Under the pieces are notes generated by a model. It was not told where the DNA came from. It searched no databases and saw nothing but the letters and a program-made list of their open reading frames with translations. From Thermodesulfobacteriota bacterium (GTDB lineage Bacteria; Desulfobacterota_D; UBA1144; Nemesobacterales; Mycalebacteriaceae): a stretch of 64,000 bases of DNA. Of this stretch, positions 10,888 to 40,345 are shown in pieces (position 1 is the first letter of the stretch; the number at the start of each line of letters is the position of its first letter). The position numbers and the translations under genes were made by a program. The DNA is taken from the NCBI GenBank assembly GCA_965205855.1, contig OZ242184.1, positions 822,570 to 886,569 of the forward strand, given 5' to 3'.

Positions 10888-10960
<73 letters not shown>

Positions 10961-10973
10961 AGCATTTTTGATG

Positions 10974-11047: not shown

Positions 11048-11063
11048 AGGCCACCCGTGTTTA

Positions 11064-11146
11064 TGGGGAGGGTAGGATTCGAACCCACGTAGGCTTGCGC
11101 CGGCAGATTTACAGTCTGCTGCTTTTGGCCACTCAGCCACCTCCCC
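11064..11146 (-). tRNA. tRNA-Tyr (anticodon GTA), class II with a long variable arm
   Basis: Reverse complement GGGGAGGTGGCTGAGTGGCCAAAAGCAGCAGACTGTAAATCTGC... with a long extra arm and GGTTCGAATCC T-arm. Confidence 0.75.
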
Positions 11147-11195
11147 TGTTTTACGAAAAACAACAGACATTAAAAAACTCGCACCGCAGGTTTCC

Positions 11196-11269
11196 CAGCT
11201 GGCGAAGGGAATTGAACCCCCGACCTGCTGATTACAAATCAGCTGCTCTGCCAACTGAGCTACGCCAGC
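11196..11269 (-). tRNA. tRNA-Thr (anticodon TGT)
   Basis: Reverse complement GCTGGCGTAGCTCAGTTGGCAGAGCAGCTGATTTGTAATCAGC...GGTTCAATTCCCTTCGCCAGCT. The anticodon loop is UUUGUAA. Confidence 0.75.
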
Positions 11270-11793: not shown

Positions 11794-11795
11794 AG

Positions 11796-12344: not shown

Positions 12345-12363
12345 ACCTCCTTTAAATCATTGA

Positions 12364-14661
12364 CTACAAAGAAGCACCTATTGAGAAGTGAAGTTGCATT
12401 TTTTCCTCGAAAGGCTCTCTGTCAATCGGATATCCGAACTCAATTTTAATCAGTCCCAAAGGTGAACGCCACCAGAAACCATAACCATAGTCCTGACGCA
12501 AATCAGAAGGGTTGGTTGAGAACTGGGATCCCCTGTCGGAGTCAAAAACATTTCCTATATCATAAAACAAAACTCCAAATAAACCAAGAGGCTCAAAAAG
12601 TGGAATAACCAGATCGGTTTTTCCATATATTCTTTCTGTTCCTCCAAGAGAGGAATTGCCGACGGACAGGTCCCTGTAGTCAAAACCCCGTAGGTTGGAA
12701 GGGCCTCCGAGAAAAAGCCTTTCATCAATTGCGTGGGAGTTACTCTCTCCCCGAATAAAGACTCTGCTGTATCCGATTTTCACCGAGAGAAAGGAACCTC
12801 TTAAAAGCGGAATCCATGCATGGTTCTCAAATGCCAGTTTGCTTAAATCCGTATCTCCTCCAAAAGGGCCGGAGTGCTCATATAAAAGACTTGTCCTGTA
12901 TCCGCTTCTGGGAAACTGGTAGTTGTCCCTTTTGTCCCAATTGATGTCCGCGCCCACAGCGCTTAGTATTCCCCTTGAATCCATAATGTTGGCTTCAACA
13001 GCACGTGGCGAAGGGTTTGTTATCTCAAGATTTTCCCACCTGTAGTAGACTCGCCCCCAGAGATTTTGGTAAAGAGACCTGCCGATTCCAATCGTGGAAC
13101 CCGTGGATTTGGTGTCATAATCCACATAGTCTCTTTCTATTCGGGAGAGAGAAATATCAAAACTCCAATTTGTGTCAAGGAAGTTTCTGTCAGCATACCG
13201 GAAGCTGTAACTATCCGTTATGCCGCCGAAACTGGCGCTCGCCGAAACTGTCTTGCCATAACCGAAGAGGTTTGCCTCTTGGACTGAGCCGAAAAATATG
13301 AAGTCTTCAATTGAGCTTACGCCAGCGCCGAGATTAAACTGAGCTGTTGAAGACTCTCTTATTGAAATATTCACATCCAGTTCGTCCGGATTTTGTTTTG
13401 ACACCTCGGTTGAAACCTGAGTTGCTTCGGAGTCAAAAAATCCAATGCGTCCCACCAGAGGTTTTATTAAAGAAAGGTCGCCGGACCTGTAAATATCCCC
13501 TTCCGCAAATGGGAGCTGCCTTCTTATAACCTTGTCCACAGTCTTGTCATTGCCATCAATATTTAACCTGCCAAAGTAAAAAATCTTTCCTTTTTCAACG
13601 GTAAAAGTTATAAAAACGCCCGGTTTGCCGTCACCTGTTAACTGCTTTTTCAGCGAGGGTTCAACATTGACGTTCGCGTATCCCTGATTTGAATAAACCG
13701 AAGTGAGAATACTTATATCGGAAGTGAGCTTGCCGTTTCCATACGGCTTGCCTTCTTTCAGATTAAGAGTGTAGAAAATTTTGTCTTTATTTACTTCAGG
13801 CGGCGCTTCCATTCCCTCAAGAGAAACTCCCGCCACAAAATACTGCTGTCCTTCGGAGACTTTGAATGACACTTCATAGGAATTTTCTTCCAGATTGCGC
13901 TTCAATTTGGGAGCCGAAACCTGAACGTCAAGATAACCCTCGTTCAAATATATGAACTTTATACGCTCCAAATCCCGCTGAACTTCCTCTTTTACAAAAA
14001 GTCCTTTTTGTCCCAAACTGTAAAAACGGCGCGGCGAACTGAAAATACTTTTCTTTATCTTCTTTGTCTTGATTTTATTGTTGCCCTCAATTTTCACCGA
14101 AGAGATGGTTTCTCTTTGGCCCTCTTCTATATTGTATGAAACACTTATTCCGCCACCCGCTTCGGGCTCTATATCGTAGGAAGCTTGTGCATTGCTGTAA
14201 CCTTTTGTGGTATAGAGACGGGCAATATTATCCAGTTGGTCGTGAAGTTTTCCCGTTCCGGTTATCTGGTTTCCCTCAATTTCCAGAACTTCTTTAATCT
14301 CTTCGTCTTTAATCTTCTTGTTGCCGTTAATGGAGAAATCAACAAGAACCGGGTTCTCTTTGACAATATAAATCAGCTCCACTCCTGATGCGGAAACTAC
14401 TTTCTCAACGGTGACATCGTAAAAATTCCCCGTTGAGTATATTTTTTTTATATCTTCGGCAGTTTTAGATTCATCGTATGTCGCTCCGACTTTCTGAGAG
14501 GCAAGAAGTTCCACGGATTCCTTTGAAACCCTCCTGTTACCTTCAATTCTGATCTTTGATACTTCGGCGGCCTCGGCAAAAGAGGAGATTCCCACGGCGA
14601 AAAATACTGAAAGTAAAACAAAAAAAGGAAACAGTTTTCCCCTTCCGTTACCGTTAAGCAT
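12364..14661 (-). CDS. bamA: outer-membrane protein assembly factor BamA
   Basis: 765 aa with a signal peptide, repeated POTRA-like segments (IRIEGNRRVSKESVE..., VKIEGNNKIKTKKI...) and a C-terminal beta-barrel ending ..GLIKIEFGYPI...HFSIGASL. Confidence 0.9.
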   Translation of the reverse strand: MLNGNGRGKLFPFFVLLSVFFAVGISSFAEAAEVSKIRIEGNRRVSKESVELLASQKVGATYDESKTAEDIKKIYSTGNFYDVTVEKVVSASGVELIYIVKENPVLVDFSINGNKKIKDEEIKEVLEIEGNQITGTGKLHDQLDNIARLYTTKGYSNAQASYDIEPEAGGGISVSYNIEEGQRETISSVKIEGNNKIKTKKIKKSIFSSPRRFYSLGQKGLFVKEEVQRDLERIKFIYLNEGYLDVQVSAPKLKRNLEENSYEVSFKVSEGQQYFVAGVSLEGMEAPPEVNKDKIFYTLNLKEGKPYGNGKLTSDISILTSVYSNQGYANVNVEPSLKKQLTGDGKPGVFITFTVEKGKIFYFGRLNIDGNDKTVDKVIRRQLPFAEGDIYRSGDLSLIKPLVGRIGFFDSEATQVSTEVSKQNPDELDVNISIRESSTAQFNLGAGVSSIEDFIFFGSVQEANLFGYGKTVSASASFGGITDSYSFRYADRNFLDTNWSFDISLSRIERDYVDYDTKSTGSTIGIGRSLYQNLWGRVYYRWENLEITNPSPRAVEANIMDSRGILSAVGADINWDKRDNYQFPRSGYRTSLLYEHSGPFGGDTDLSKLAFENHAWIPLLRGSFLSVKIGYSRVFIRGESNSHAIDERLFLGGPSNLRGFDYRDLSVGNSSLGGTERIYGKTDLVIPLFEPLGLFGVLFYDIGNVFDSDRGSQFSTNPSDLRQDYGYGFWWRSPLGLIKIEFGYPIDREPFEEKMQLHFSIGASL

Positions 14662-15334
14662 TCGCCAGCCTCCCTTCGCGAATAACTACAGTTCTATCAA
14701 ACCTTTTAGAAATCTCCCTGCTGTGGGTGGCCACAACAAAGGTTGTGTTGAGATTCTCTTTCATTTGTAGCATCACATCAGCGACAAGCATTGAAGTTTT
14801 CGGGTCCAGATTTCCCGTTGGCTCATCGGCGAGAACAATCTCCGGCTCCATGACAAGGGCACGGGCAATGGCAACCCTTTGCTGCTGCCCCGAGGAAAGT
14901 TCATCGGGAAATCTTTGGAGATAGTCCCGGAGCCCCATCTGGCAAAGCAACTTTTCCGACCTTGAATAAGCCTCCGATTTTTTCATTCCGGAAATCAAAC
15001 AAGGAAGGCTCGCATTCTCAAGAGATGTAAATCCGCTGAGTAAATTATGAGATTGAAAAACAAACCCCATTTTACGCCTTACTTTTGTATTGAGATGTTT
15101 ATTCGAAGCGGAGTTATATTTTTCGCCTTTAAAAAAAACTTCCCCATCGGTTGGACATTCCAACGCGCCCAGCATATTAAGAAAGGTGGTTTTTCCCGAA
15201 CCGGATTTGCCGTTTATTGAAACACTCTCTCCGTTCTTAACCGTAAGGCTGATTCCATCAACGGCTTTAACGCCACTTCCGTCCCACTGAGTATACTCTT
15301 TTTCCAATTTTTTTGCTTCAATCAGTATGTTCAT
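14654..15334 (-). CDS. lolD: lipoprotein-releasing/MacB-type ABC transporter ATP-binding protein
   Basis: Walker A GKSGSGKTT, ABC signature LSGGQQQRVAIARAL, Walker B ILADEPTGNLD. The start at MNILIEAKKLEKEY overlaps the lolC stop (ATGA). Confidence 0.8.
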   Translation of the reverse strand: MNILIEAKKLEKEYTQWDGSGVKAVDGISLTVKNGESVSINGKSGSGKTTFLNMLGALECPTDGEVFFKGEKYNSASNKHLNTKVRRKMGFVFQSHNLLSGFTSLENASLPCLISGMKKSEAYSRSEKLLCQMGLRDYLQRFPDELSSGQQQRVAIARALVMEPEIVLADEPTGNLDPKTSMLVADVMLQMKENLNTTFVVATHSREISKRFDRTVVIREGRLANA

Positions 15335-25758: not shown

Positions 25759-26433
25759 TTAAAAAGAAACCAAGGTCTCCGCATCAATCTCAAGAGCGGA
25801 TTCCACTATAAGGTCAGCCTGGGACAAAGAGCCACGCGGGTACGAGTTTGTAACGGCAATACATTTCATTCCCGCCGCCTTTGCCGCTGCTATTCCGGGC
25901 GGGGAGTCCTCTATTGCGACGCACTGCCCCGCTTGTATGTGCAGATGAGTTCGCTCTTCATTTACTCCCTGTAAGGCGCGAAGAAATATCTCTGGGTTGG
26001 GTTTGCATTTTGAGCAATCTTCGGCGGCCGCCACAAAGGAAAAGAAATCAAGAAGCCCATCGCGGGAAAGAACGGACTCTATCTCTTCCCTCAGTGCCCC
26101 AGATGCGATGGCAAGAGAAAAATCTCCCGCGAGACCGCGTATTAGATTCTCAATGCCTGCAAAAAAAGCGCATTTCCGTATGGCGGAGGAAACGGCAAGC
26201 GATTTTTCGCGCACGAGTTCTGCAACGGCTTCCTCGGAGGAATCCAGATTGTTTTCCCGAAGCAGAACCGTAAAAAGAGTTTTATCATCAAACGCGAGGT
26301 ATTTTGAGTAGTAATCCTGTTCGGAAATCTCAATTCTCACTGGGGCGAGAACTTGCCTGAAAGCCCTCAAATGAACGGTTTCAGTGTCGGCGATAACGCC
26401 GTCAAAATCAAATATCACAACTTTTATCGCCAT
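25759..26433 (-). CDS. HAD-family hydrolase (beta-phosphoglucomutase-like phosphatase)
   Basis: HAD motif I VVIFDFDGVIADTE and motif III/IV AIEDSPPGIAAAKAAGMKCIAV. Confidence 0.7.
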   Translation of the reverse strand: MAIKVVIFDFDGVIADTETVHLRAFRQVLAPVRIEISEQDYYSKYLAFDDKTLFTVLLRENNLDSSEEAVAELVREKSLAVSSAIRKCAFFAGIENLIRGLAGDFSLAIASGALREEIESVLSRDGLLDFFSFVAAAEDCSKCKPNPEIFLRALQGVNEERTHLHIQAGQCVAIEDSPPGIAAAKAAGMKCIAVTNSYPRGSLSQADLIVESALEIDAETLVSF

Positions 26434-26492
26434 TGTCCTACCAGAGCAAGGTGTGATATTATAAAGGATATTTTAAAACAGAGGTTGACCGG

Positions 26493-26828
26493 ATGAGTTA
26501 TTACAAGCCCGAAGATTTAAAAAAATTTGCCGAAGTCGGAAATTTTGCAAAGGATTTGATGGATAAATTCTTTGACTACTACAACGCCGCCGTATCGGAG
26601 GAAGGATCTCTGACAAAGCGCGAGAAATCCCTGATTGCCCTTGCCGTAGCGCACTCAAAACAGTGCCCTTACTGCATAGACGCTTATACGAGCAAATGCA
26701 TTGAGGCCGGAGCGGATCCGGAAGAAATGACCGAAGCCGTTCATATAGCCGCGTCAATAGAAGCCGGAATAAAACTTATTTACGCCGTACAGATGAGAAA
26801 CGCTATGAAAAAAAACGGCGCCATTTAA
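26493..26828 (+). CDS. AhpD/carboxymuconolactone-decarboxylase-family peroxidase-like protein (partner of the ArsS-type rSAM)
   Basis: 111 aa with REKSLIALAVAHSKQCPYCIDAYT (AhpD-like CxxC). Immediately upstream of the radical-SAM gene. Confidence 0.7.
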   Translation: MSYYKPEDLKKFAEVGNFAKDLMDKFFDYYNAAVSEEGSLTKREKSLIALAVAHSKQCPYCIDAYTSKCIEAGADPEEMTEAVHIAASIEAGIKLIYAVQMRNAMKKNGAI

Positions 26829-26854
26829 GCCGCTGTGCGCGAGCAACCTGTCTT

Positions 26855-27871
26855 ATGGAAAAAAAAATAGATTTCAGCAGCTTCATCAAAGAACGGGGAG
26901 TCAACATAACCCCTCTTTCACTCAAAACTCTTCAGGTCAATATAACAAGACTGTGCAATCAGACTTGTGTTCATTGCCATGTTGACGCTTCCCCGAAAAG
27001 AACTGAGCAGATGAGCATGGAGACCGTCAATCGCTGTCTGGAAATCCTTGAGCAATGCGATGAAATTGAAACACTTGACATTACGGGCGGAGCTCCCGAA
27101 CTCAATCCGCATTTTGACTATTTTGTGGAGAATGCCTCCAAGCTTAAGAAGCGTTTAATAGTCCGGCACAACCTCACTGTTACAATTGACGGAAATCCGG
27201 TTACCGGAGAGAGCAAAGAGTATCTTCCGGAGTTTTTTGCGAAACACCGCGTGGAGGTTGTCTCGTCTCTTCCCCATTACTCGGAGTATTTTACTGACAG
27301 ACAGAGAGGCAAGGGAGTTTTTGAAAAAAGCATCCGCGCCGCTCTTTTGTTGAACAGGCAGGGATACGGCATGGAAGAAAGCGGGCTTGTTCTCAACTTT
27401 GTTTACAATCCGCCCGGAGAATACTTCGCTTCCGACCAGAAAAGTCTTGAAAAAATTTTCAAAGAGAAGTTGAGAACGAAATACGGCATTGAGTTCAACA
27501 ACCTTCATTCCATCATAAACATGCCGATTAACAGGTTCCGCAGGCAGCTGATAAGAGAGAGAAAATATGCGGATTATATGGACAAACTTGTCTCAGCTTT
27601 CAATCCCGCCGCCGCGGAAGGAGTAATGTGCAGAAATATGATAAGCGTTGACTATAACGGGGCGCTTTATGATTGCGACTTCAACCAGATGTTGAACATG
27701 TCCGTCCGTCTTACAAGCACAGACAAACCGACAATTTTCAACTCTTCTCCCGACCGGATAATGAAACGCAACATCAGTTTTGCAAACCACTGTTTCGGTT
27801 GCACCGCTGGAGGGGGAAGCAGTTGCGGAGGGGAGACCGCCTCCGAAGAAAGGACGCCGCAAACAAAATGA
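26855..27871 (+). CDS. radical SAM / Cys-rich-tail protein (ArsS-like, arsenosugar-biosynthesis rSAM family)
   Basis: CNQTCVHCH rSAM cluster motif near the N-terminus and a C-terminal HCFGCTAGGGSSCGG tail, as I recall for the rSAM/'selenodomain' (ArsS) family. All Cys are TGC/TGT codons with no in-frame TGA. Confidence 0.75.
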   Translation: MEKKIDFSSFIKERGVNITPLSLKTLQVNITRLCNQTCVHCHVDASPKRTEQMSMETVNRCLEILEQCDEIETLDITGGAPELNPHFDYFVENASKLKKRLIVRHNLTVTIDGNPVTGESKEYLPEFFAKHRVEVVSSLPHYSEYFTDRQRGKGVFEKSIRAALLLNRQGYGMEESGLVLNFVYNPPGEYFASDQKSLEKIFKEKLRTKYGIEFNNLHSIINMPINRFRRQLIRERKYADYMDKLVSAFNPAAAEGVMCRNMISVDYNGALYDCDFNQMLNMSVRLTSTDKPTIFNSSPDRIMKRNISFANHCFGCTAGGGSSCGGETASEERTPQTK

Positions 27872-28494
27872 ACACGGTCGCGGTTTTCCTCAAATATCCC
27901 TCTCCGGGAAATGTAAAAACCCGAATGGCAAAAGACCTTGGCCAAGAGCGCGCCGCACAGATATATTCGGCGATGGCCAAAATGGTCCTTTCCACGGCCG
28001 GAGGCGTCGGGCATTCACTTTGCGTATTTTACGACCCGCCGCAAATGGAAAAGGAAACCAGAGAATGGCTCGGTCGTGATTTCAAGGGACGGCTTCTGCC
28101 TCAGAGGGGGCAATCTCTCGGAGAAAAAATACCTCACGCAATTGAAGACTGCATATGTTTCGGAAGCGGAAAAGTGGTGGTCATCGGAACCGATTGCGTG
28201 GAAATAACCCCGGAAATATTAAAAGATTCTTTCAAACGCCTTGATGAAACAGACACCGTAATAGGCCCGTGCGAGGACGGCGGCTACTATTTGATAGGAC
28301 TGAAACGCAACCACAAGGAAATTTTCCGGGGAGTAGACTGGAGCACAAACAAGGTAACGGCTCAGACACTTGAAAAAATACTAAAATTGCCACTCAAAGT
28401 GAGCATACTCGACACACTGCGCGATATTGACTTCGCAGAAGACCTGGATGGAAAAACCTTGAACAGAATTGAAAGCGCAAATTTCAAAACCTGA
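27868..28494 (+). CDS. DUF2064-type glycosyltransferase-like protein (rSAM-associated 'transferase 1' family)
   Basis: The start MNTVAVFLKYPSPGNVKTRMAKDLG overlaps the rSAM stop (ATGA). Motifs GTDCVEITPE and GPCEDGGYYLIGL are typical of DUF2064. Confidence 0.7.
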   Translation: MNTVAVFLKYPSPGNVKTRMAKDLGQERAAQIYSAMAKMVLSTAGGVGHSLCVFYDPPQMEKETREWLGRDFKGRLLPQRGQSLGEKIPHAIEDCICFGSGKVVVIGTDCVEITPEILKDSFKRLDETDTVIGPCEDGGYYLIGLKRNHKEIFRGVDWSTNKVTAQTLEKILKLPLKVSILDTLRDIDFAEDLDGKTLNRIESANFKT

Positions 28495-28501
28495 AAAGAA
28501 G

Positions 28502-29248
28502 ATGACTGAAACAACCGTTTTTGAACCGGCTTTCACCCTCGCGTTTCTTGCCGGAATGGCATCCTTCCTCTCGCCTTGCATTTTTCCGCTTGTTCCAGGG
28601 TATCTGTCGGCAATGGCCGCCGGAAGAGGAACGGCGGATGTCCGTGTAAGAGGCTTTTTTTCGTTGCTTCCCGTCATTGTTTTTGTTCTGGGGTTTTCTT
28701 TTGTTTTTTCACTAATGGGAACATCAGCTTCGTTTCTGGGCTCCTTTATCATGAAAAACAGGGGAGTTCTCTCAACGGTTTCCGGTTCCCTGATAATGGT
28801 ATTCGGGCTTTTCACAATGGATGTCATAAAGATCCCTTTTCTACAAAGGCAGAAACCTTTGAACCTTCAGACAAAGGACAGGGGGGTTGCGTATGTATTT
28901 CTTCTGGGTTGCGCTTTTGCTCTCGGTTGGACGCCGTGCATAGGCCCCATGCTTGCCTCAATTCTCGCGTATGCGGCTTCGTCCGGACAAACGACAAAAG
29001 GAATTTCCCTTTTGCTTGTTTATTCCGCCGGGCTTGGAATTCCCTTTATTGCCGTTGGAATTTTCTTTGCAAAATGGAGACCGCTATCTTCTGTGGCGCG
29101 GAAATTCCATCCGTTCTATAAACACATAGTAGGGGGAATGATGGTGATTGCGGGCTTTCTCATATCGTTTGACCTTCTGTTTTATCTGAACATCTACGGA
29201 CAGAGAATATTTGATTTCTTCGGCATTGACTTCTGGAGGCAAATCTGA
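28502..29248 (+). CDS. ccdA: cytochrome c-type biogenesis / thiol-disulfide electron transporter CcdA (DsbD membrane domain)
   Basis: Six TM helices with two conserved Cys (SPCIFPLVPGY and WTPCIGPML). The start may instead be at 28469. Confidence 0.75.
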   Translation: MTETTVFEPAFTLAFLAGMASFLSPCIFPLVPGYLSAMAAGRGTADVRVRGFFSLLPVIVFVLGFSFVFSLMGTSASFLGSFIMKNRGVLSTVSGSLIMVFGLFTMDVIKIPFLQRQKPLNLQTKDRGVAYVFLLGCAFALGWTPCIGPMLASILAYAASSGQTTKGISLLLVYSAGLGIPFIAVGIFFAKWRPLSSVARKFHPFYKHIVGGMMVIAGFLISFDLLFYLNIYGQRIFDFFGIDFWRQI

Positions 29249-30885: not shown

Positions 30886-31569
30886 GTGATGGCAGAGAAT
30901 CTTGCGTTATTGAAGGAGAGTCCTTTGCCGCTCAAAGCCGTCATATTTGACATGGACGGGGTGCTTATAGAAAGCGAGCCCCTGTGGGAAGCGGCGGAAA
31001 TCACCCTTCTCAAATCAAGAGGCATAGAATACGACCCTCTTTTCAGAGAAAAAGTTATCGGGCTCAATCAGATTGACTCATCAAAACTCATCATTCGGGA
31101 ATTTGGCGTGAAAAACTGTTCGCCCGAAGAGATGATAAGACAGCGTATAGAAATTCTTCTTGGGATTTACGATAAAAAACTCACAATGTTTGAAGGCTCT
31201 AAAGCGCTTGTTGAAAAGATACGGGAAAGCGGATTTAAGACCGCCCTGGCGTCCAGCTCACCCATGGAAGTGATAACGTATGTGCTTGAAAGGTTTTCAC
31301 TTACGAAACTTTTTGACGCGGTGGTTTCAGGTAGCTGCATTCAAAACGGCAAGCCCGCTCCCGATATCTACTTGCTCGCGGCGGAGCAGCTCGGGGTTCA
31401 ACCGCCTGAATGCGCCGCGGTTGAAGACTCGCCCATAGGAGTAAAATCCGCCGTTTCCGCCGGAATGTTCTGCATCGGCGTTCCCGACAAGCGGCTCAAA
31501 GCCGAAGAGTTTGAAATCTGTGATGTGATTTGTGAAAACATCGGGCAAGTGGAAAAAATAATCGCTTAA
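30886..31569 (+). CDS. HAD-family phosphatase (beta-PGM-like)
   Basis: Motifs AVIFDMDGVLIESEPLW and AVEDSPIGVKSAVSAGMFCIGV. Confidence 0.7.
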   Translation: MMAENLALLKESPLPLKAVIFDMDGVLIESEPLWEAAEITLLKSRGIEYDPLFREKVIGLNQIDSSKLIIREFGVKNCSPEEMIRQRIEILLGIYDKKLTMFEGSKALVEKIRESGFKTALASSSPMEVITYVLERFSLTKLFDAVVSGSCIQNGKPAPDIYLLAAEQLGVQPPECAAVEDSPIGVKSAVSAGMFCIGVPDKRLKAEEFEICDVICENIGQVEKIIA

Positions 31570-31576: not shown

Positions 31577-32239
31577 TTAATCGCATGGCGACATAAAGCA
31601 GTTGGAATCATGCACATTACCCGGGCTGTAATCAGTTGACTTAATGAACCCATCTTCATCCACATTAATGTGCGCCTTGTAACCATAGGTACTTTTGCGC
31701 TTTCCATCCGACCCGGCTTTTACATTCCAGCCGACCTCGGGGTCTTGGGTCGAATGACCTTCCTGGTTCTTGTGGGGACGGCATTGCTTCGCTTCAATCA
31801 CACTGGCATCAACAATACTGACCCCTCCCGATTGGATGTAAAGCCCTTGTTCGCTCAATTGAGTGTTGATCTCACGGAGGCACTCATCCATTAAGGACAA
31901 GCTCTCCAGCGTTTGTCTAAACCGCCAAAACGTCGCGTGATTCGGCACAGATTCTGAAATGTCCAGACCGGTGAAGCGACGAAACAGCAGATCCCGTGCC
32001 AACTGCTTTTCCAGTGCCGGGTCACTGAGTCCGTACCAGCTTCGCAGCAATAAAGCTTTAAACATCATCAATGGTGGCCAGGCCTTCTCGCCCCGAGGGT
32101 TTGAATGAATACCTGAAAGCTGTTGCTCCAGGCGCGACCAATCGATTAATTCGTGCACGGCATCCAGTTCTTTGAGCGCATCATGCTCGAGCAACAGGCC
32201 ATCCGCCAAACTGCGTTGCCTGAGGTTTTTCCAGGCCAT
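31577..32239 (-). pseudogene. IS5-family DDE transposase, C-terminally truncated
   Basis: 220-aa ORF MAWKNLRQRSL...LSDPALEKQLARDLLFRRFTGL...STYGYKAHINVDEDGFI, which is the N-terminal two-thirds of the 39273..40257 transposase. Confidence 0.8.
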
Positions 32240-32336
32240 TTCTTCTTCTCCAGGGGGTATAGTGGTGGGGTATAGTGCTTGAGCCTATTATCGCAAATTC
32301 TCAACGCAGATTCTTCTGGTTTTATGCAAAGGTCTC
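31594..32336 (-). mobile_element. truncated IS5-family insertion sequence (copy 1, ~740 bp), covering the right ~60% of the element
   Basis: ~95% nucleotide identity to 39612..40345, including the terminal GAGACCTTTGCA inverted-repeat end at 32336. Similarity stops abruptly at 31594, 24 nt after the HAD gene stop. Confidence 0.8.
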
Positions 32337-32540
32337 TAATAAGTAGAACTGTCCGATCACAGACCTCCAGAAAACGCCGCGATGCCTCATTCTGGGTGGG
32401 ACGGCTTTCCGTCCACCCTCCGATAGCTGATAAGCTCGCTGATCAAGTACATCGAACAACATCGCTGTTAACTGTTTCGTTTCCAGGAAATGATGAAACT
32501 GCAAAATCACACTCTCATCGGGAAGACGATCATCGTCCAA
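32322..32540 (-). pseudogene. remnant of a second, different IS5-like transposase N-terminal domain
   Basis: 72-aa ORF with LPDESVILQFHHFLETKQLTAMLFDVLDQRAYQLSEGG. This resembles the InsH-type N-terminal motif (PDxTTLxxFRxxLxxxxLxxxLFxxV...GL) but is unrelated in sequence to the flanking IS copies. Confidence 0.3.
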
Positions 32541-32690
32541 ATCCTAATGCGCAAAACGACGCATCGATTCGACCTTTGGCATACTGTCTTCCGTTAGTGG
32601 GTCGGACAGGTACTGTTTTCCATCGGGTTTCGCGGCACTGTAAGCGAGGCAGGTGGCCTTCGTCACAAGCGTTGGCAACGAGCTACTATC

Positions 32691-35600
32691 TCAATCTTTA
32701 TTTTCCGCCTTAAAATGCTTCGCCTCGCCAATGAGCGCCTCTATTTCCTCTCTTTTGCTTGTCGTAAGCCTTCTCAAGCCAACGCGATTGACGATGTAAT
32801 CCAGAGGGGAGTGCCGGTTACGGTCAGCGGAAATAGCATCTAGTGCCAGGCCGAGCTTTTCTGGATAGGGAACCTGTTCCCAAGAGCGTTCTTCACCGCC
32901 AAATTCAAGGCCGCGAAACTTGAGTACTTTTTCAGGTGGCTGATGATGCGGCCAGAAAATGTTTTCCCCCGACGGGCCTTTTTGAATTCGGCGCTTTTTG
33001 TGAACTGCTGCCCTGACCGTTTTTTTGATTCGAGAACCGCTTCTCCGGAACCCATGCAATCGTGCCATCTTCTGGCAAAGATGTTCGTGGGTGATCGGCC
33101 CGAACCGGTCAATGATGTCAGTGCCCAAGTCCATCAGGGTAGAGCGATATTCGTCATCGTAGAAGGAATCCGAATCGAGTCTTCGATTTCCCTGTGTAGA
33201 ACTCCTGCCATCAAGCCGATCAGCTGCGGGTAGTGAGCTCCGTGGTTGCTCAATTGAGTTTTCCCTATCTTGCCCGGTTTGCTGAATTTCCCTATCGTGC
33301 GGCGAATTATGGGGCCGCGTGCGCGCAGCTTTGGGTGCCCGCTCCACTTTTTCCACGACAGCTGTTCGGAGATGGTTGCCGATCAGGACGTCAATTTCGT
33401 CGCCTTCTTCAGTTCCCAGGAGTGCTTCGCCCAACGGCGTAAAAGTGCCGACAATGCTGTTCGACGGATCGTTGTTTCGATCGTCCAGTGTCACTTTCAG
33501 AAATTCATCAGGGTCGTCCAGGTATCGAACCTGGACGGTGTCTCCAGGGCCGACGCCTACGCCGAAACCGTATTTTTCTTCTTCGGTGGCTTTTTGGTCA
33601 TCGTCGGATACCTCGCTGAGCTCATCATCTTCGATGGGCTGAACAATGGCAGTCGATTGCGTTTCCAGTGAAGTTTCGGTGAATTTATCAGCATTTCTTT
33701 TCAGATCTTCCATGCGTTGAGTAATAACGCCCCGCAGTATCTCGGCTTCGCGAGGAGGGTCATTGAACCAATCCGTCGACCAAATCCGGTGGAAATGCCA
33801 CCCGAGGCCCTCGAGCACCTCCTGGCGAAGTCTGTCGCGGTCTCTGGCGGATTTCGAGGAATGATAACTGGCACCGTCGCATTCGACCCCAAGAATGTAA
33901 CCGTGGGGCCAATTCGGATGTTTGACGCCGATATCGATAAAGTAGCCAGCAACGCCGACCTGTGGTACGGCCCCGCATCCCATCGCTTTAATCTGGTCGA
34001 TTACGAAAACCTCGAACTCCGAGCCAGGCTCCCCGGGGGCATGTGTCCCGCCTTCGAGTACCCCGGTTTCCGAGTAGTCGAGCCACCGCTTGAGCATGTA
34101 GGTTCCTGGGTTGCCGTTTTCATCCGCACGAATATCTGCAGCGGTCATTGATGAGAAAGTGATAATCTGCTCTTTGGCGCGTGAAAAGAGCACGTTCAAA
34201 CGGCGCTTACCTGCAAGTCCGTTGATGGGGCCAAAACGCTGCATGACCGGCCCGCCAGTGTTTTCGGATCCATAGACGGTTCCAATAAAAATTACGTCCC
34301 TTTCGTCGCCCTGAACATTTTCGAGATTCTTAATAAAGAAACTCTCAAGCCCATCGTTCTTCTCGTTCCAATAATTAACATAGTCTGCAGCCTTCTTCCT
34401 TGTCCTTAAAGCATCTTCCATCTCCTCGATCATCAGGTCTCGCTGTTTCTGATTCAGCGTGACGATACCGAGAGAGCGATCCGGGCTCCGTTCCATGAAA
34501 TCCAGCGCCGCATCGACCATCACCCGGGATTCCGGCCCGTTTATTCCCGATTGGTAAATACCGTCGACAGAGACGCGAGACACGCCCATGTCCTTGCGGC
34601 CCTCATGGGCGGAGGGAAAAACGATCAGCTTATCGTCATAAACGAGTTTGTTGGAAAACTTGATCAAGTCCGAATGGCGTGATCGATAATGCCAGCGGAG
34701 CTGCCTTTTTGGTCTGAACGCAGCGTTTGCCAGTTCGAGGATCGACTCATCCAGCACGGTCTCGTCCTCGTCCTCCTCGTCGATCATCCTGCGAAAGAAG
34801 GTGGTAGGGGGCAGTTGATTGGTGTCCCCAACGATCATCGTCTGTTTCGAGCGGATCAGCGCACCGAAGGCATCTTCGGGTGGCATTTGTGACGCTTCGT
34901 CGATGATGCAAAGATCGAACTCGACCGTGCCTCGGGGAAGGTATTGTGCAACGGCCAGCGGCGACATCATCCAACAGGGCTTCAACTCCTGAAGGGCTTT
35001 ACCTGATCTCTCAGCAAGGGCGCGCATGGGGACAAACCTTTTTTTCTTGCTTATTTCGTTTTCGATGAGCGCCCACTCAGTCAATTCAGATTTTTTGCCC
35101 ACTCGTATGCCTGGCGGCGGATTCGCAGATTGTTGAATGCGCTGTCTGATCATCTGTCTTGTAGATTGGATGATCTGCTTGTCCGCATTTGCGAGCTTTT
35201 CGCGTAGATCATCCAGTTTTGACCCATGAAAACGCCCTAAAACGGAATTAAAATCGTGATCGCGATAAACGCGCTTTGCCAGGCTCCTTGCAACCAGGGC
35301 ATTGGCGATTTTCGGGAGATCAGAAAGCGGGATGCAATTTTCCTGACAGATGTTCGCGAGTTTGGGGTGTCCGAATTTCGCAAAAGAATCCAGAGCAACT
35401 GCGTATTCGGAGCGCTTGTACATCTCTTCAGAATTATGGACGGCCTGTTTCAGGAAGTCGGCTATTTGAGCATTCGTCCGACCTGTACGGAAGTGGGCGT
35501 CATTCTGGCCTGTCAGGCCGGACAACGCGTTGAGCCGATTCGCCGCCATGCTTGATAAATTTAGATACTTTTCCAGTTGAGAACGGAAATCTGCAACTTT

Positions 35601-38600
35601 GTTATCGCGGATCAACTTGACGATGAGTTCTCGCCATTCTTCCACCGCTGGCAACACGGTTTTCGCAATGGAAAGTTCCGGTTCCGCGTCATTTGCGACG
35701 GTATCATGCCCACTAAACTGATCTTGGAGCAATGCTCGCACCGGCTCCTTATCCGTTAATTCCGCATGAATTTCGTGCAACCTGACAACATCACTCCGGA
35801 GCACCTGCAATCCGACGATGTCAAGCCGGTCCGCTGCGGGAATGTCCGACAGAAGTGTAGACAGCTCTTGGATTCCCGACTCGAAAGATTCTTTGCGCCG
35901 GGTTAACTCGTCAATTCGTTCCAGCAGGCTCTCGTAGTCTCCCTCCCATTCGGGAAGGGAAATCTTCGGGATAGACACGAGCAGATCCAGAGCGCCATGC
36001 TTCAGAACGTCACGGATCGCCAGCTTTTCTACACCGGGGAGCCTTTGCTCAACGACTTCGAAGAATTTCAGAAGGTTCCCGAAGGAAACGAAGTCGGTAT
36101 CAAGGCCCAGGTTGTGGAGTCCAAGGACACTGTCCAGGGCAGGCAGCTTGAAAAACCGGTCTTTTTCGTCAAGCCAATCAGACAACGCTTTGAGATCCGA
36201 TGCCGCAGAGACCCTGTCAAAGCGGGCCGCATAGGCAAGTTCCATATATGCTTGCTTGGCAGACCGATAGGACGGCGAGAGAAAACCAAACATCCCGGCC
36301 TCAGCGATCTGGCAAGCATGTTGCCGCAGGTGCTGAGGGTCAGTTTCCGTCTTTAGAGAAACCCGCGTACCCAAGTCGACCGCTGACCTTTTTAATTTCT
36401 CGCCGAGTTCGCAGACTTGCCGGATGACGATGGCAGCCTCAGGCGACGCGGTTGTTTCGTTCCTAAGTGCAAGAGCGGCACGGTCGGTCTTTTCGATGAT
36501 GCCAGCCGCACATTGGAGATCACATATCAAGAAGTCTCGGCACTCAGGAAATGCTTCAAGAAATGGCCTTAGTTTCGTGGAGAGAGCCTGGAGATCTTCG
36601 AGCTTGCTATTGTCTGCACCTTGCCTGCTTTCAAGCTCCTTGAGGCTGAGGGTTTCGAAGTCGTGCGCCTGACAGACACGTTCAATTTCGGTAAGCCGTT
36701 CATTCCAGACCGCGTCCATTGGCTCTCGGACGCTTCTTCCGATTTCATCAATGCGGTCGCGCAACGCATTGCAATCGGAAATGAACTGCTCGATATGATC
36801 GACCGAATCTTGGTCTAACAGCCGATCCACCAGATCTGCATCCGGGCGAGCTCCGGTAAGCTCCACACCATTAAGGCAGGATTTCAGAAGATCCAGATCC
36901 TGTTCGTATTGAGAACTCTCCATTCCCATATCGTTCAACGCTTGTTCCAGAACACTCAAGGAATGGAAAGATTTCTCCGCCGCGTTGGCAGTTTCACCAA
37001 TTTTCTCGACATCAAACTTACTGATATTCTCGACGCTCAAGCCTCGCCAGTAATCGCCGACGTCCTTCAGTTTTCCCCATGCACGCCCGAGGGATTCTGC
37101 GGCGCTGATAATGTTCTCAACCTGAGACGAAGACATGTCCTCGATTTGGTCGAAGTCGATGTCTCGAATTTCTTTGGGCAAGTTGTCTAGAATCTCGTGG
37201 GTGGCGATATTCTTTCCCAATATCTCATGGACGGAGAGCTCCGAATTTCCGAACTTCCTACCGATAACGGAAACGTATTCGGCGAGCTCTGCCCGATACT
37301 TGTTGAAATTCTCTCGAATACTTTCGAGATCGTGGTAATTACTCACAGTCTCCATCTCAACCCGGCCCCGAATCGACTGGATCACCTTTTCCTTTGTCGA
37401 ACGTTCGGCTTGAAGCGGTAGGACGAATTCGCCAAGGCCCACGGATTCGAGGCGCGATTTTACAATCTCAAGAGCGGCCATCTTTTCGGCCACGAAGAGC
37501 ACTTTCTTGCCAGAGCCCAACGCACACGCAATCGCATTCACGATCGTCTGGGATTTCCCTGTCCCCGGCGGCCCTTCGACTGCGAGGTTCCTTCCTTCGG
37601 CCAGGTCGACAAGTGTGCTGAACTGCGAGGAGTCCGCGTCCATAACAACGTATGGCACTTTTTCTTCGATTTCGGGGGCATCCATTTCATATTCCTCCTC
37701 GAACGGGGTCGCGGAGGAAGCTTCTGTACCGATAAGCATCGTCTCGATAATGTCGCTCTGTTCAAAAGTCGCACTGGATGTATCAAGATCGTGATACATT
37801 GCCATTCGAGAAGACGGGAAAACACCAAAGACAACTTGCCGGCGCACGCGGATATTGAGGTTACTGGGCAGCGCATCAGCGACGCGTTTCAAATAGTCCT
37901 CGACGGAACCGCCTTCGTAGCCTGGAAGTTCAATACCGAAATCTTGCTTAAGCTTCTCCGCAAGCACCAGATTCGTCTCGGCCTCATCGCCGCGGCCGTT
38001 AACCCGGAACTCCAGACCTTTGCGCGTTTTTTTCTTTTCCAGTTCGACCGGGAGAAGGACTATCGGAGAGAAGTAAACCCTGTCTTCCTTCGGTTCCTTC
38101 CATTCGAGAAAGCCGAAAGCTGCATGCAACACATTGATGCCGGATTCCTGAATCCATGTCCGGGATTTCGCCAAAATTCCATTCAGTTTCCGTTCGAACT
38201 CGCCGGGAAGAAGGAGAGTCTGGATATCCTCGTCAGTATGACGCCCGTCTTCATGTTCTTCCTCTGGCAGAGGAAGGTCGTAAGACGGGGAGATGTGATT
38301 GTTCTTTGCGTGCTGGGATAGTGACGTATCCCCCTGCTCTGCTCGGGGCAACATCCCCAGCTGCTCTCTTACGCGATCCTTCAGGTCACGGTCTATTTGC
38401 TCTTCGCGGTCGAGCGCCTCCGCCGCATCCGGATCGAGGTTTTGCAACTGCTCGAGATAGGCTTCGCCGACGGCACGGGCTTGGCTAAGCGCATTTCGGA
38501 ACTCTCGCGTCTGCTCGTCTTTTGGATCGTCTTCGAGGGACGGCAGGGGCACAAAGCGCATCGGTTTTTGGAGCGAGAGGTTCGCCATAAGCACGTCCGG

Positions 38601-38765
38601 CAATTCATCAACGATTCGTGCAAACGGTCCTCGCCGACCCAAATTCGCCGATATCAGAGGGTTGCGGCGCGTAAGATCAAGCAGTTTTCGGCGTAGATTC
38701 TCTACCTTGTCTTTCAGTATCTGGACAAACCCCTCTTGATCTGTGCTGTTTTCGACTCGATCCAT
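32691..38765 (-). CDS. giant (2024 aa) DUF4011-like / Upf1-like SF1 helicase / Vsr-type PD-(D/E)xK endonuclease / GreA-C-like multidomain protein; candidate Hhe-like defence helicase-nuclease
   Basis: N-terminus RRKLLDLTRRNPLISANLGRRGPFARIVDELPD (DUF4011-like). Walker A VEGPPGTGKSQ at aa ~398. After an ~880-aa coiled-coil-rich insert come DLCIIDEASQM (motif II), MIVGDTNQLPP, GIVTLNQKQRD, VQGDERDVIFIGTV and RLNVLFSRAKEQI. Next is a DUF559/Vsr-like block GYFIDIGVKHPNWPHGYILGVECDGASYHSSKSARDRDRLRQEVLEGLGWHFHRIWSTDWF, then a GreA-C-like segment GDTVQVRYLD...IVGTFTPLGEALLGTEEGDEIDV. Confidence 0.85.
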   Translation of the reverse strand: MDRVENSTDQEGFVQILKDKVENLRRKLLDLTRRNPLISANLGRRGPFARIVDELPDVLMANLSLQKPMRFVPLPSLEDDPKDEQTREFRNALSQARAVGEAYLEQLQNLDPDAAEALDREEQIDRDLKDRVREQLGMLPRAEQGDTSLSQHAKNNHISPSYDLPLPEEEHEDGRHTDEDIQTLLLPGEFERKLNGILAKSRTWIQESGINVLHAAFGFLEWKEPKEDRVYFSPIVLLPVELEKKKTRKGLEFRVNGRGDEAETNLVLAEKLKQDFGIELPGYEGGSVEDYLKRVADALPSNLNIRVRRQVVFGVFPSSRMAMYHDLDTSSATFEQSDIIETMLIGTEASSATPFEEEYEMDAPEIEEKVPYVVMDADSSQFSTLVDLAEGRNLAVEGPPGTGKSQTIVNAIACALGSGKKVLFVAEKMAALEIVKSRLESVGLGEFVLPLQAERSTKEKVIQSIRGRVEMETVSNYHDLESIRENFNKYRAELAEYVSVIGRKFGNSELSVHEILGKNIATHEILDNLPKEIRDIDFDQIEDMSSSQVENIISAAESLGRAWGKLKDVGDYWRGLSVENISKFDVEKIGETANAAEKSFHSLSVLEQALNDMGMESSQYEQDLDLLKSCLNGVELTGARPDADLVDRLLDQDSVDHIEQFISDCNALRDRIDEIGRSVREPMDAVWNERLTEIERVCQAHDFETLSLKELESRQGADNSKLEDLQALSTKLRPFLEAFPECRDFLICDLQCAAGIIEKTDRAALALRNETTASPEAAIVIRQVCELGEKLKRSAVDLGTRVSLKTETDPQHLRQHACQIAEAGMFGFLSPSYRSAKQAYMELAYAARFDRVSAASDLKALSDWLDEKDRFFKLPALDSVLGLHNLGLDTDFVSFGNLLKFFEVVEQRLPGVEKLAIRDVLKHGALDLLVSIPKISLPEWEGDYESLLERIDELTRRKESFESGIQELSTLLSDIPAADRLDIVGLQVLRSDVVRLHEIHAELTDKEPVRALLQDQFSGHDTVANDAEPELSIAKTVLPAVEEWRELIVKLIRDNKVADFRSQLEKYLNLSSMAANRLNALSGLTGQNDAHFRTGRTNAQIADFLKQAVHNSEEMYKRSEYAVALDSFAKFGHPKLANICQENCIPLSDLPKIANALVARSLAKRVYRDHDFNSVLGRFHGSKLDDLREKLANADKQIIQSTRQMIRQRIQQSANPPPGIRVGKKSELTEWALIENEISKKKRFVPMRALAERSGKALQELKPCWMMSPLAVAQYLPRGTVEFDLCIIDEASQMPPEDAFGALIRSKQTMIVGDTNQLPPTTFFRRMIDEEDEDETVLDESILELANAAFRPKRQLRWHYRSRHSDLIKFSNKLVYDDKLIVFPSAHEGRKDMGVSRVSVDGIYQSGINGPESRVMVDAALDFMERSPDRSLGIVTLNQKQRDLMIEEMEDALRTRKKAADYVNYWNEKNDGLESFFIKNLENVQGDERDVIFIGTVYGSENTGGPVMQRFGPINGLAGKRRLNVLFSRAKEQIITFSSMTAADIRADENGNPGTYMLKRWLDYSETGVLEGGTHAPGEPGSEFEVFVIDQIKAMGCGAVPQVGVAGYFIDIGVKHPNWPHGYILGVECDGASYHSSKSARDRDRLRQEVLEGLGWHFHRIWSTDWFNDPPREAEILRGVITQRMEDLKRNADKFTETSLETQSTAIVQPIEDDELSEVSDDDQKATEEEKYGFGVGVGPGDTVQVRYLDDPDEFLKVTLDDRNNDPSNSIVGTFTPLGEALLGTEEGDEIDVLIGNHLRTAVVEKVERAPKAARTRPHNSPHDREIQQTGQDRENSIEQPRSSLPAADRLDGRSSTQGNRRLDSDSFYDDEYRSTLMDLGTDIIDRFGPITHEHLCQKMARLHGFRRSGSRIKKTVRAAVHKKRRIQKGPSGENIFWPHHQPPEKVLKFRGLEFGGEERSWEQVPYPEKLGLALDAISADRNRHSPLDYIVNRVGLRRLTTSKREEIEALIGEAKHFKAENKD

Positions 38766-39136
38766 TTTTGTCTCTTTACTCAGTTGTTTGACTGTAACAT
38801 CAGCCTATGGGATTAGTTTGACATAGAGTGATTCATCGTCAAAATATCCTATAGCCACTGCCTATTAGCGACGATTATGCGATTTTTTGAGATGCTAGTT
38901 AAGGGGAATCTAATGAAATTCATAGCCACGCTGGCGACTCTGCCCAGAACTGCCGACCTGCTGACTCTATCAAACATCGATCCTTATTTTACAACATGTC
39001 ATATGACTAACAGAACTTGGACCTCGGCTCACACAGATCTAAATTTCTTGTTCCCAAATAACATCAATCTAGATCCTATATAATCAAGCACATCAACACT
39101 ATATCGCTTGTGGTGGCGACTGGAATACTGAGATTA

Positions 39137-40345
39137 GAGACCTTTGCACGGACACATTGTAGAGTTTATCAGTTCTTCAAACGGGCTTTTTTTTGAGAAA
39201 AATGCCCAAAAAGCACTCAATCAGCCGTATTGGTTGGCCGATTAGCCCATCTTTCCACCCCTTTTTCATTTTTTAGGCGCAACTTGCCTGCTGAAGCGAT
39301 AAACCCCGCTTGATATTGTCGGCGACGCACATCAACTCAAAGCGCGTGCGGTTACGGCCAAGACCCAGGTAGCGGGCTTTGCCCATCCCGTAGTGTAGCT
39401 TTAACACCCCAAAGACACGTTCCACCGTACAGCGTACCCCCGAATGAAGCCGGTTAAACTTCCTCCCCTGTGCATCCAACGGCTGGTTGCGATAAGCCAC
39501 GTTTGATGATCCGATTATCTATCTGTCGCTCCGCCAGCCACGGGTCGTGAGCCTGACTACGATAAGCATTATCCGCATAAACCGCCGTCTCATCGCCGCT
39601 TAATAAATCCGTAAAGCAGTTGGAATCATGCACATGACCCGGGCTGTAGTCGGTTGACTTAATGAACCCATCTTCATCCACATTAATGTGCGCCTTGTAA
39701 CCATAGGTACTTTTGCGCTTTCCATCCGACCCGGCTTTCACATTCCAGCCGACCTCGGGGTCTTGGGTCGAATGACCTTCCTGGTTCTTGTGGGGACGGC
39801 ATTGCTTCGCTTCAATCACACTGGCATCAACAATACTGACCCCTCCCGATTGGATGTAAAGCCCTTGTTCGCTCAATTGAGTGTTGATCTCACCCAGGCA
39901 CGCATCCATCAAGGATAAGCGCTCCAGCGTTTGTCTAAACCGCCACAACGTCGCGTGATCCGGCACCGATTCTGAAATGTCCAGACCGGTGAAGCGACGA
40001 AACAGCAGATCCCGTGCCAATTGCTTTTCCAGTGCCGGGTCACTGAGTCCGTACCAGCTTCGCAGCAACAAAGCTTTAAACATCATCAATGGTGGCCAGG
40101 CCTTCTCGCCCCGAGGGTTTGAATGAATACCTGAAAGCTGTTGCTCCAGGCGCGACCAATCGATTAATTCGTGCACAGCATCCAGTTCTTTGAGCGCATC
40201 ATGATCGATCAACAGGCCATCCGTCAAACTGCGTTGCCTGAGGTTTTTCCAGGCCATTTCTTCTCCAGTGGAGGGGTATAGTGCTTGGGCGGCCTATTAT
40301 CTCAAATCCTCAACGTAGGTTCTTCTGGTTTTATGCAAAGGTCTC
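39137..40345 (-). mobile_element. full-length IS5-family insertion sequence (copy 2, ~1.2 kb) with terminal inverted repeats GAGACCTTTGCA
   Basis: Inverted-repeat-left GAGACCTTTGCAcgg at 39137 and inverted-repeat-right tatGCAAAGGTCTC ending at 40345. The internal transposase is in the same orientation as copy 1. Confidence 0.8.
39273..40257 (-). pseudogene. IS5-family DDE transposase, split by a frameshift near 39480-39500
   Basis: ORFs 39454..40257 (...TAVYADNAYRSQ...IIKRG) and 39273..39500 (AYRNQPLDAQGRKFNRLHSGVRCTVERVFGVLK...) together make a typical ~320-aa IS5 transposase in two frames. Confidence 0.75.

Follow-up and report, generated by a model that had tools for sequence, protein, structure and literature searches.

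A probable arsenosugar-type core gene block without a linked arsM in a streamlined Candidatus Dadabacteria-class genome

Results

An ArsS gene block with its usual partners

We analysed a 64-kb stretch of DNA (64,000 nucleotides of contig OZ242184.1 of a Thermodesulfobacteriota bacterium; hereafter the window), in which four consecutive genes encode an AhpD-like protein, the radical S-adenosylmethionine (SAM) enzyme ArsS, a DUF2064 protein and CcdA. We conclude, with a probability of about 0.72, that the first three of these genes are the conserved core of a bacterial arsenosugar-type pathway, kept in a streamlined genome of the class Candidatus (Ca.) Dadabacteria, and that their present arrangement is a deletion derivative of a fuller one. 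The four genes are:

26493–26828, forward strand: AhpD-like (CMD family) protein, the TIGR04169 partner of ArsS; 111 aa; Pfam CMD
26855–27871, forward strand: ArsS radical SAM enzyme; 338 aa; Pfam Radical_SAM and DUF3641 (SPASM/twitch-like C-terminal domain)
27868–28494, forward strand: DUF2064/TIGR04282 putative nucleotide-diphospho-sugar transferase-like protein; 208 aa; Pfam DUF2064
28502–29248, forward strand: CcdA thiol-disulfide electron transporter; 248 aa; Pfam DsbD_TM (PF02683), E = 1.1e-18

An earlier reading of the window, made from the letters alone (the sequence-only reading), had likened this block to the "rSAM/selenodomain" neighbourhood. The NCBIfam search bears this out, since all three proteins score above the cut-offs of the corresponding models. 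The AhpD-like protein, whose CxxC motif reads C58-P-Y-C61, reaches 158.4 bits with TIGR04169 (cut-off 120). The radical SAM protein reaches 408.7 bits with TIGR04167, the ArsS model (cut-off 300), in a match that spans residues 21–327 of the protein and positions 5–302 of the 303 in the model. The DUF2064 protein reaches 193.1 bits with TIGR04282 (cut-off 134); it also matches PDB 3CGX, a "putative nucleotide-diphospho-sugar transferase", at E = 1.8e-27, and its likeness to CofC is weak. Of Haft's rSAM/selenodomain set (TIGR04167, TIGR04169, TIGR04282 and TIGR04283), the window therefore has every marker but TIGR04283, next to one another and in the customary order; it further differs from that set in being of the Cys rather than the selenocysteine (Sec) form.

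The genes are tightly packed: 26 bp separate ahpD from arsS, arsS and DUF2064 overlap by 4 bp, the DUF2064 start codon and the ArsS stop codon sharing the ATGA read at 27868–27871, and the CcdA reading frame, which opens at 28469, has its likely ATG at 28502, 7 bp past the DUF2064 stop. Gene order, coordinates, the ATGA overlap and the position of CcdA directly downstream are thus as first described, and the retained genes contain no frameshifts or internal stops.

ArsS keeps most conserved residues of its ArsM-linked relatives

The radical SAM motif of the window ArsS, CX3CX2C (C34-NQT-C38-VH-C41), is invariant in a 20-sequence alignment, and its C-terminal tail reads H312-C313-FG-C316-TAGGGSS-C324-GG. 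The tail had been described as all Cys with no Sec, and the codons agree, C313, C316 and C324 being encoded by TGT, TGC and TGC, respectively. All 84 ArsS sequences that we compared (window included) belong to the Cys form, and their HCxGCTAGxGSSCGG tail hardly varies; no Sec-containing ArsS was found among the 84 loci. A GxxU motif is listed for Sec-containing members (PMC13188914); C324 of the window ArsS occupies the GxxU position, which is Sec in the selenoprotein members.

Conservation extends well beyond these motifs. Among ArsM-linked ArsS proteins, 98 columns are near-invariant; the window ArsS agrees with them at 92, and the six changes are I/L, R/K, F/L, F/L, A/P and I/T. At columns conserved to at least 90%, no substitution is shared by the clade of loci without arsM to which the window belongs (see below). 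Judged from its sequence, the window ArsS most likely still adenosylates dimethylarsenite. It resembles SsArsS of Synechocystis sp. PCC 6803 and the TIGR04167 family in the full-length match to the model, the CX3CX2C motif, the DUF3641 domain and the HCxGCTAGxGSSCGG tail, and its conserved residues are as in ArsM-linked members. It differs from SsArsS in an extension of its own, about 10 residues long, at the C terminus, and in its setting: SsArsS works with SsArsM in Synechocystis, as cited in PMC8552651, whereas the window has no ArsM within 64 kb and the upstream arsR-arsM pair is missing.

The extension has a visible counterpart in a related locus. The window ArsS ends in ...CGGETASEERTPQTK (27842–27871), about 10 residues past the ...CGGxTA end of its relatives. 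In the related locus L004 (L numbers denote individual ArsS loci), the arsS stop is followed by a 30-nt in-frame spacer (10 codons) and then by the DUF2064 ATG, and the window reads through the equivalent stretch. The ATGA overlap of the window therefore seems to have arisen through the loss of a stop codon and not to be an ancestral coupling.

The AlphaFold 2 model of ArsS (mean pLDDT 78.8, pTM 0.82) matched only SPASM/twitch radical SAM enzymes in Foldseek, with TM scores of ~0.45–0.5; its solved structural neighbours are SuiB, BlsE, DesII, EpeE, BtrN, MoaA and anSME, and a sequence search for a solved ArsS structure found no close homologue. The stretch C259-x9-G269-x4-C274 agrees with the SPASM/twitch signature CX9-15GX4C, and C259 and C274, together with C313 and C316, could form an auxiliary cluster site of the SPASM/twitch type. 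Residues 320–338 of the tail are modelled with low confidence, as a flexible arm would appear, and C324 is a plausible ligand for trivalent arsenic.

The window contains no arsM

The sequence-only reading reported no arsM in the window, and three kinds of search agree with it. A Pfam scan of essentially all long open reading frames (ORFs) of the 64-kb window revealed no SAM-dependent methyltransferase. Custom hidden Markov models (HMMs) for ArsM, the MTAP-type nucleoside phosphorylase, ArsR and the TIGR04283-type family 2 glycosyltransferase (GT2) were built from the neighbours of other ArsS loci and searched against the six-frame translation of the window; the ArsM, MTAP and ArsR models gave nothing better than E = 0.7 (best ArsM match, E = 1.3). 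Likewise, tblastn of ArsM and ArsR against the window gave no match at E ≤ 1. The spacer between the upstream HAD gene and ahpD measures 59 bp, which leaves no room for an arsM remnant. No methylarsenical uptake system was identified in the window either.

The custom GT2 model found its best match in the window (12.9 bits, E = 0.0016) in an AglJ/DPM1-like GT2. We ruled this protein out as the missing TIGR04283 partner, for it resembles AglJ/DPM1 and has no TIGR04283 match at E ≤ 1e-5 in NCBIfam; TIGR04283 is absent from the window and from every Dadabacteria-class locus examined. The protein is the sole GT2 of the window (~52136–52816, forward strand, ~232 aa), and its gene is flanked by nuoA and pdxA. 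In NCBIfam it comes closest to AglJ and to dolichyl- or undecaprenyl-phosphate hexose transferases, with scores that fall far short of the cut-offs. The ORF as mechanically called runs from 51671 and overlaps nuoA on the other strand, and the true start is probably the Met at ~52136.

An unlinked arsM is the usual condition among ArsS loci

ArsS neighbourhoods were compared across a sample made of the best 80 of at least 592 ArsS-encoding stretches in species-representative genomes and three loci from an exact look-up, giving 83 loci besides the window. These came from Acidobacteriota, Bacteroidota, Nitrospirota, Bdellovibrionota, Leptospira, Burkholderiales, Calditrichota and others. Their neighbours were clustered and the cluster representatives annotated, with the following genes found beside ArsS:

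AhpD-like protein: 67 of 83 loci
DUF2064 protein: 30 of 83 loci
ArsM: 23 of 83 loci in the available sequence (strong matches, 363–499 bits)
TIGR04283-type GT2: 18 of 83 loci
MTAP-type nucleoside phosphorylase: 11 of 83 loci
CcdA: 7 of 83 loci

ArsR, Pit and PstS/PstB also recur near ArsS, in fewer loci. In 42 of the loci the flanks reach 5 kb or more on either side, and in 13 of these (31%) arsM lies within 3 kb of arsS. The lack of a nearby arsM, which had been put forward as a peculiarity of the window, is therefore the majority condition, and the family-wide link of ArsS to arsenic is real across phyla.

In NCBIfam, the representative ArsM proteins score highest with NF008823 "arsenite methyltransferase", at 198–253 bits, just below the 263-bit cut-off, and the MTAP representative (L069) scores 292 bits with TIGR01694 (cut-off 275). 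The 11 loci with an MTAP-type phosphorylase include L037, L045, L053, L054, L069, L075 and L076, and complete sets of ArsM, MTAP, DUF2064 and GT2 are present in L037, L053, L054 and L069. In two loci DUF2064 is fused to a TIGR04283-type GT2 (L027, 7594–9063; L072, 10947–12335). The co-localisation of MTAP and the DUF2064-GT2 fusions suggest candidates for the steps that follow ArsS. The full Bacteroidota/Bdellovibrionota clusters (L069, L037, L053 and L054) share ArsS and DUF2064 with the window, and L053 and L054 also have the AhpD-like gene directly upstream of ArsS. Unlike the window, they carry ArsM, an MTAP-type phosphorylase, TIGR04283 and sometimes a DUF547 protein or a MerA-like oxidoreductase, an OlsE-like hydroxylase occurring in other loci (L076); the L069 cluster consists of MerA-like, Pit, ArsS, ArsM, MTAP, GT2 and DUF2064 genes.

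Some further neighbours of ArsS in other genomes are less familiar. In L069 (4909–8820), a 733-aa protein is MerA/lipoamide-dehydrogenase-like in its C-terminal two-thirds and has a hydrophobic N-terminal extension. Also recurring near ArsS (L076, 3523–4365; Bacteroidota loci L045 and L053–L055) are a ~280-aa protein with no NCBIfam match (cluster C8), an OlsE-like lipid hydroxylase and an AglJ-like GT2. These MerA-like, C8, OlsE-like and AglJ-like neighbours may serve arsenolipid formation or arsenical redox handling.

The arrangement in the window appears to derive from a larger operon

A protein identical to the window ArsS is on record on a contig of 1,401,274 bp. The nearest named homologues belong to Ca. 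Mycalebacterium and Ca. Dadabacteria (73–75% identity), and some of their NCBI records are already titled "arsenosugar biosynthesis radical SAM (seleno)protein ArsS". NCBI taxonomy places the genus Mycalebacterium in the class Ca. Dadabacteria, phylum Thermodesulfobacteriota. In a neighbour-joining (NJ) tree of ArsS, the loci without arsM (window, L001, L002, L004, L003 and L006) form one clade, with L009, L084, L085 and L008 as its sister clade and L005 and L019 as the next outgroups. These latter loci are all arsM-linked except L008, a short contig whose upstream region falls outside the available sequence.

All seven CcdA-bearing loci of the sample are of the Dadabacteria class, and the housekeeping synteny of the window is common to those with enough flank, in the order ATCase, PyrR, signal peptidase, RelA, Gmk, HAD (reverse strand), module, malic enzyme. 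In this same synteny, L009, L084 (on a 2.67-Mb contig) and L085 have the HAD gene on the reverse strand followed by arsR-arsM-ahpD-arsS-DUF2064, with a TlpA-CcdA pair further downstream. Between DUF2064 and TlpA, L084 carries a pstSCAB-like phosphate ABC transporter (11710–15100) and L085 a PHO4 phosphate permease (11723–12856); the position of a phosphate transporter directly 3' of DUF2064 in both suggests a coupling to phosphate or arsenate uptake. Beyond TlpA-CcdA, both loci continue with PPTase, malic enzyme, CDF transporter and HAD genes. Of the genes in this arrangement, the window lacks arsR and arsM, the PPTase and CDF genes and either kind of phosphate transporter.

Because the fuller arrangement is found in the same synteny of larger-genome relatives, the arrangement of the window is best read as a deletion derivative, whose history is most simply explained if arsR-arsM was lost once and other deletions came after. 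The ancestral operon would have been arsR-arsM-ahpD-arsS-DUF2064-(pstSCAB or PHO4), beside the TlpA-CcdA pair. Deletion of arsR-arsM, of the phosphate transporter and of several other genes (tlpA being now elsewhere in the window) would have left ccdA 7 bp behind DUF2064 and the second HAD gene no more than 2.3 kb from ccdA, with the block now flanked by a HAD gene at either end. The features flanking the block are:

25759–26433, reverse strand: HAD-IA beta-PGM-like hydrolase, divergently transcribed syntenic neighbour
26433–26462, forward strand: sigma-70-like promoter match (TTGTCC, 18-nt spacer, TG-TATTAT), ~30 bp 5' of the AhpD-like start; weak evidence
30886–31569, forward strand: second HAD-IA beta-PGM-like hydrolase, syntenic neighbour

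The sequence-only reading had seen the cluster as bracketed by two paralogous HAD phosphatases on opposite strands. There are indeed two paralogues on opposite strands, but the bracket itself is conserved synteny: the two proteins are distant, only 28% identical to each other, the first gene keeps the same position in all Dadabacteria-class relatives, also where arsR-arsM separates it from ahpD, and the second is found ~9 kb downstream in L084. This low identity and the conserved syntenic positions rule out a recent duplication framing a mobile unit. Shared synteny and genome reduction would thus make both the HAD bracket and the adjacency of CcdA by-products.

The retained genes are strongly conserved

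Compared with L004, L002 and L001, the AhpD-like protein is 83–86% identical and ArsS 72–75%, values on a level with malic enzyme (86–87%) and above those of RelA (69–71%), Gmk (62–63%) and signal peptidase (62–65%) from the same loci. Compared with deeper relatives, the AhpD-like protein (68–71%) and ArsS (60–63%) fall just below malic enzyme (71–74%) and far above RelA (46–49%). By these comparisons the retained genes are under strong constraint, that is, purifying selection, with no sequence sign of a new specificity. The AhpD-like protein is both the most constant partner of ArsS and the most conserved gene of the block.

CcdA is probably a mere neighbour of the module

CcdA had been proposed to act with the cluster by supplying reducing equivalents across the membrane. 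The comparison with other genomes does not favour such a partnership: CcdA lies beside the ArsS module only in Dadabacteria-class loci (the seven of the 83, and L084 and L085), all in one syntenic setting, and in relatives it goes with TlpA. A TlpA-like gene lies directly upstream of ccdA in L003, L009, L084 and L085 (L003 has in addition a CcmH gene 8 kb downstream), and in larger-genome relatives CcdA is parted from DUF2064 by the TlpA-like thioredoxin and by pstSCAB or PHO4. This pairing and this separation argue that CcdA belongs to a TlpA-CcdA periplasmic thiol-reduction pair and is probably outside the arsenic module.

The protein itself is consistent with that assignment. Its redox motifs are SPC26-IFPLVPG and TPC146-IGPML, with one Cys per half. 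Like the CcdA/TlpA (ResA) pair of cytochrome c maturation, the window has a CcdA of 248 aa with a DsbD_TM domain and SPC and TPC motifs, as well as a TlpA/ResA-like gene; unlike in that pair, tlpA lies ~16 kb from ccdA, which abuts DUF2064 instead, whereas the two genes are adjacent in relatives. We also ruled out CcdA as an ArsG-like organoarsenical permease, as it reaches only 28.5 bits with NF040495 (cut-off 200) and has the canonical CcdA motifs. The TlpA/ResA-like periplasmic thioredoxin of the window is encoded at 45138–45689 on the forward strand and adjoins a trehalose-6-phosphate synthase/phosphatase gene.

In a promoter and terminator scan of the region, whose matches were no more frequent than in shuffled sequence, the next promoter-like site after the match upstream of ahpD came only past ccdA, and neither a promoter-like nor a terminator-like site was found between DUF2064 and ccdA.

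Proposed pathway

ArsS uses a 5'-deoxyadenosyl radical to adenosylate dimethylarsenite, DMAs(III), to DDMAA (5'-deoxy-5'-dimethylarsinoyl-adenosine) in a redox-neutral reaction (PMC13598754; bioRxiv 10.64898/2026.04.29.721666). Adenine removal and derivatisation of the ribose follow, by enzymes that are left unnamed (bioRxiv 10.64898/2026.04.29.721666). In the literature on DUF2064, TIGR04282 and DDMAA, we found no characterisation of these post-ArsS steps. To our knowledge, only ArsM and ArsS, the first two enzymes of the pathway, have been characterised.

If the window ArsS follows the chemistry of its family, it would cleave SAM reductively and add the 5'-deoxyadenosyl radical to the arsenic of dimethylarsenite, yielding DDMAA. 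The flexible GSS-C324-GG tail may hold the trivalent arsenical. The AhpD-like CxxC protein would keep the arsenical, the tail Cys or both in the reduced state, one such reaction being the conversion of DMAs(V) to DMAs(III); its constancy and conservation, together with the existence in NCBIfam of a model (NF041537) for ArsM-AhpD fusion selenoproteins, fit a reductive role on the arsenical or the tail. In those loci that encode it, MTAP could then phosphorolyse DDMAA to 5-arsinoyl-ribose-1-phosphate, and TIGR04282 would activate or transfer the arsenoribosyl unit, normally with the GT2 TIGR04283 as the transferase. As the locus no longer has arsM, the dimethylarsenite would have to be supplied by an unlinked arsM or else be obtained from the environment or the host community.

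Discussion

Several points weigh against the reading of the locus as an arsenosugar-type core reduced by deletion. The window lacks both of the partners proposed for the downstream steps, TIGR04283 and MTAP. The activity of the window ArsS, like that of any ArsS without a linked arsM, is a prediction, and the roles of the AhpD-like protein, the tail Cys and TIGR04282 are inferred, the literature that we read assigning no enzymes to the post-ArsS steps. The NJ tree of ArsS, from which a single loss is read, carries no support values. Finally, the tight ahpD-arsS-DUF2064-ccdA spacing, with the next promoter-like site after ccdA, is compatible with co-transcription of ccdA, which leaves some small probability of a functional link.

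Within the preferred reading, the source of dimethylarsenite may take more than one form. As a sub-case, the pathway may be the ordinary one, with ArsM, and perhaps MTAP and TIGR04283, encoded elsewhere in the 1.4-Mb genome; the module would then work exactly as in Synechocystis. This accords with the norm of the family, arsM not being within 3 kb of arsS in 69% of the loci with sufficient flanks, and with an ArsS that shows no sign of changed specificity; set against it are the deletion of the ancestral arsM at the locus and a weak test on contigs. Among the 120 best Dadabacteria-type ArsM homologues (at least ~58% identity), none lies on the 1,401,274-bp contig, and none on the ArsS contigs of the relatives without arsM (1,162,647; 215,403; 225,093; 255,159; 1,990,023; and 1,507,946 bp), whereas ten ArsS contigs of the arsM-linked clade do carry ArsM from the same list. 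As the list reaches only to ~58% identity, a divergent or horizontally acquired arsM could have escaped it. We consider this sub-case quite possible, if short of probable. The same contig result also suits a lineage without ArsM that takes up methylated arsenic from seawater, a host or co-symbionts, the AhpD-like protein reducing DMAs(V) and ArsS adenosylating the product. The persistence of ahpD-arsS-DUF2064 under strong constraint after the loss of arsR-arsM, in a deep clade with genomes of 1.4–2.0 Mb, would be explained in this way, and the nearest named relatives belong to Ca. Mycalebacterium, which are sponge symbionts. However, the search of the window gave no methylarsenical uptake system, the AhpD-like protein is a reductase purely by inference, and the absence of arsM applies to the 64-kb window only; we hold such scavenging to be a somewhat doubtful explanation. 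Its wider form, in which the whole deep, small-genome, Mycalebacterium-like Dadabacteria clade lost arsM altogether and imports, reduces and adenosylates the dimethylarsenic of others, we consider unlikely; in an alternative version of this loss, ArsS would use a non-methylated or non-arsenic substrate. If the wider form were true, the synthesis of arsenosugars or arsenolipids would be divided among the members of a community, or between a host and its symbiont.

A change of substrate has also to be weighed as an explanation in its own right, in which ArsS would act on inorganic As(III), trivalent methylarsenic (MAs(III)), another metalloid or a thiol, with CcdA supplying or exporting reducing equivalents. 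The position of ccdA 7 bp past DUF2064, with no promoter-like or terminator-like site between them, and the conservation of the DUF2064-ccdA arrangement in Mycalebacterium-like genomes are what such a repurposed module would predict. Yet CcdA stands beside ArsS in one syntenic class only, is paired with TlpA and parted from the module by pst or PHO4 genes in relatives, and has canonical periplasmic thiol-reduction motifs with a score far under the ArsG cut-off, while ArsS has no clade-specific changes at conserved positions; we regard repurposing as very improbable. Less credible still, to the point of being nearly negligible, is that the radical SAM protein is a SPASM-type peptide-modifying enzyme, a maturase of ribosomally synthesized and post-translationally modified peptides. 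It does match PapB, WgkB, YydG and other maturases weakly at its N terminus, and SuiB and EpeE are among its structural neighbours, but these sequence matches reach 24–46 bits against cut-offs of 300–650 and cover the radical SAM core only (about residues 11–172), the best being PapB at 46.2 bits (cut-off 340), as against 408.7 bits over residues 21–327 for ArsS. No precursor peptide gene, protease or exporter lies nearby, and the ArsM, ArsR, Pit and Pst neighbours of ArsS across phyla also speak for arsenic. Grouping with the peptide maturases, which the sequence-only reading had named as one outcome that would overturn it, is thus not what the scores indicate. The other outcome that it had named, an adjacent arsM, is not seen within the 64-kb window.

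Arsenosugars and arsenolipids dominate marine arsenic. The locus by itself adds little new biology, since public annotation pipelines already name all three proteins; a lineage that keeps the ArsS core after deletion of arsR-arsM is, however, a natural test case for the action of ArsS on imported methylarsenicals. The example of CcdA also calls for caution, as function should not be read from tight spacing in streamlined genomes.

Other features of the window

Downstream of the second HAD gene, positions 31577–40345 form an island of ~8 kb with a G+C content of 52%, against ~46%, which bears a 2024-aa protein on the reverse strand (32691–38765) with DUF4011, AAA_11/AAA_12, MTES_1575 restriction endonuclease (REase) and DUF3320 domains. 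Two direct copies of an IS5-family transposase region (31594–31893 and 39612–39911, 97% identical) enclose the island, and a further 54-nt repeat is found at 32283 and 40292, so that the whole resembles a composite transposon. In L001 and L002 (Mycalebacterium) the equivalent site is occupied by an N6_N4 methyltransferase-HNH gene, and in view of this different content it seems to be a variable hotspot of mobile or defence genes. Elsewhere in the window, five tRNA genes (9572–9644 and 10888–11269, reverse strand) flank tuf, upstream of a nusG-rplKAJL-rpoB block; a 136-aa ORF at 10844–11254 is spurious, because it overlaps this tRNA cluster.

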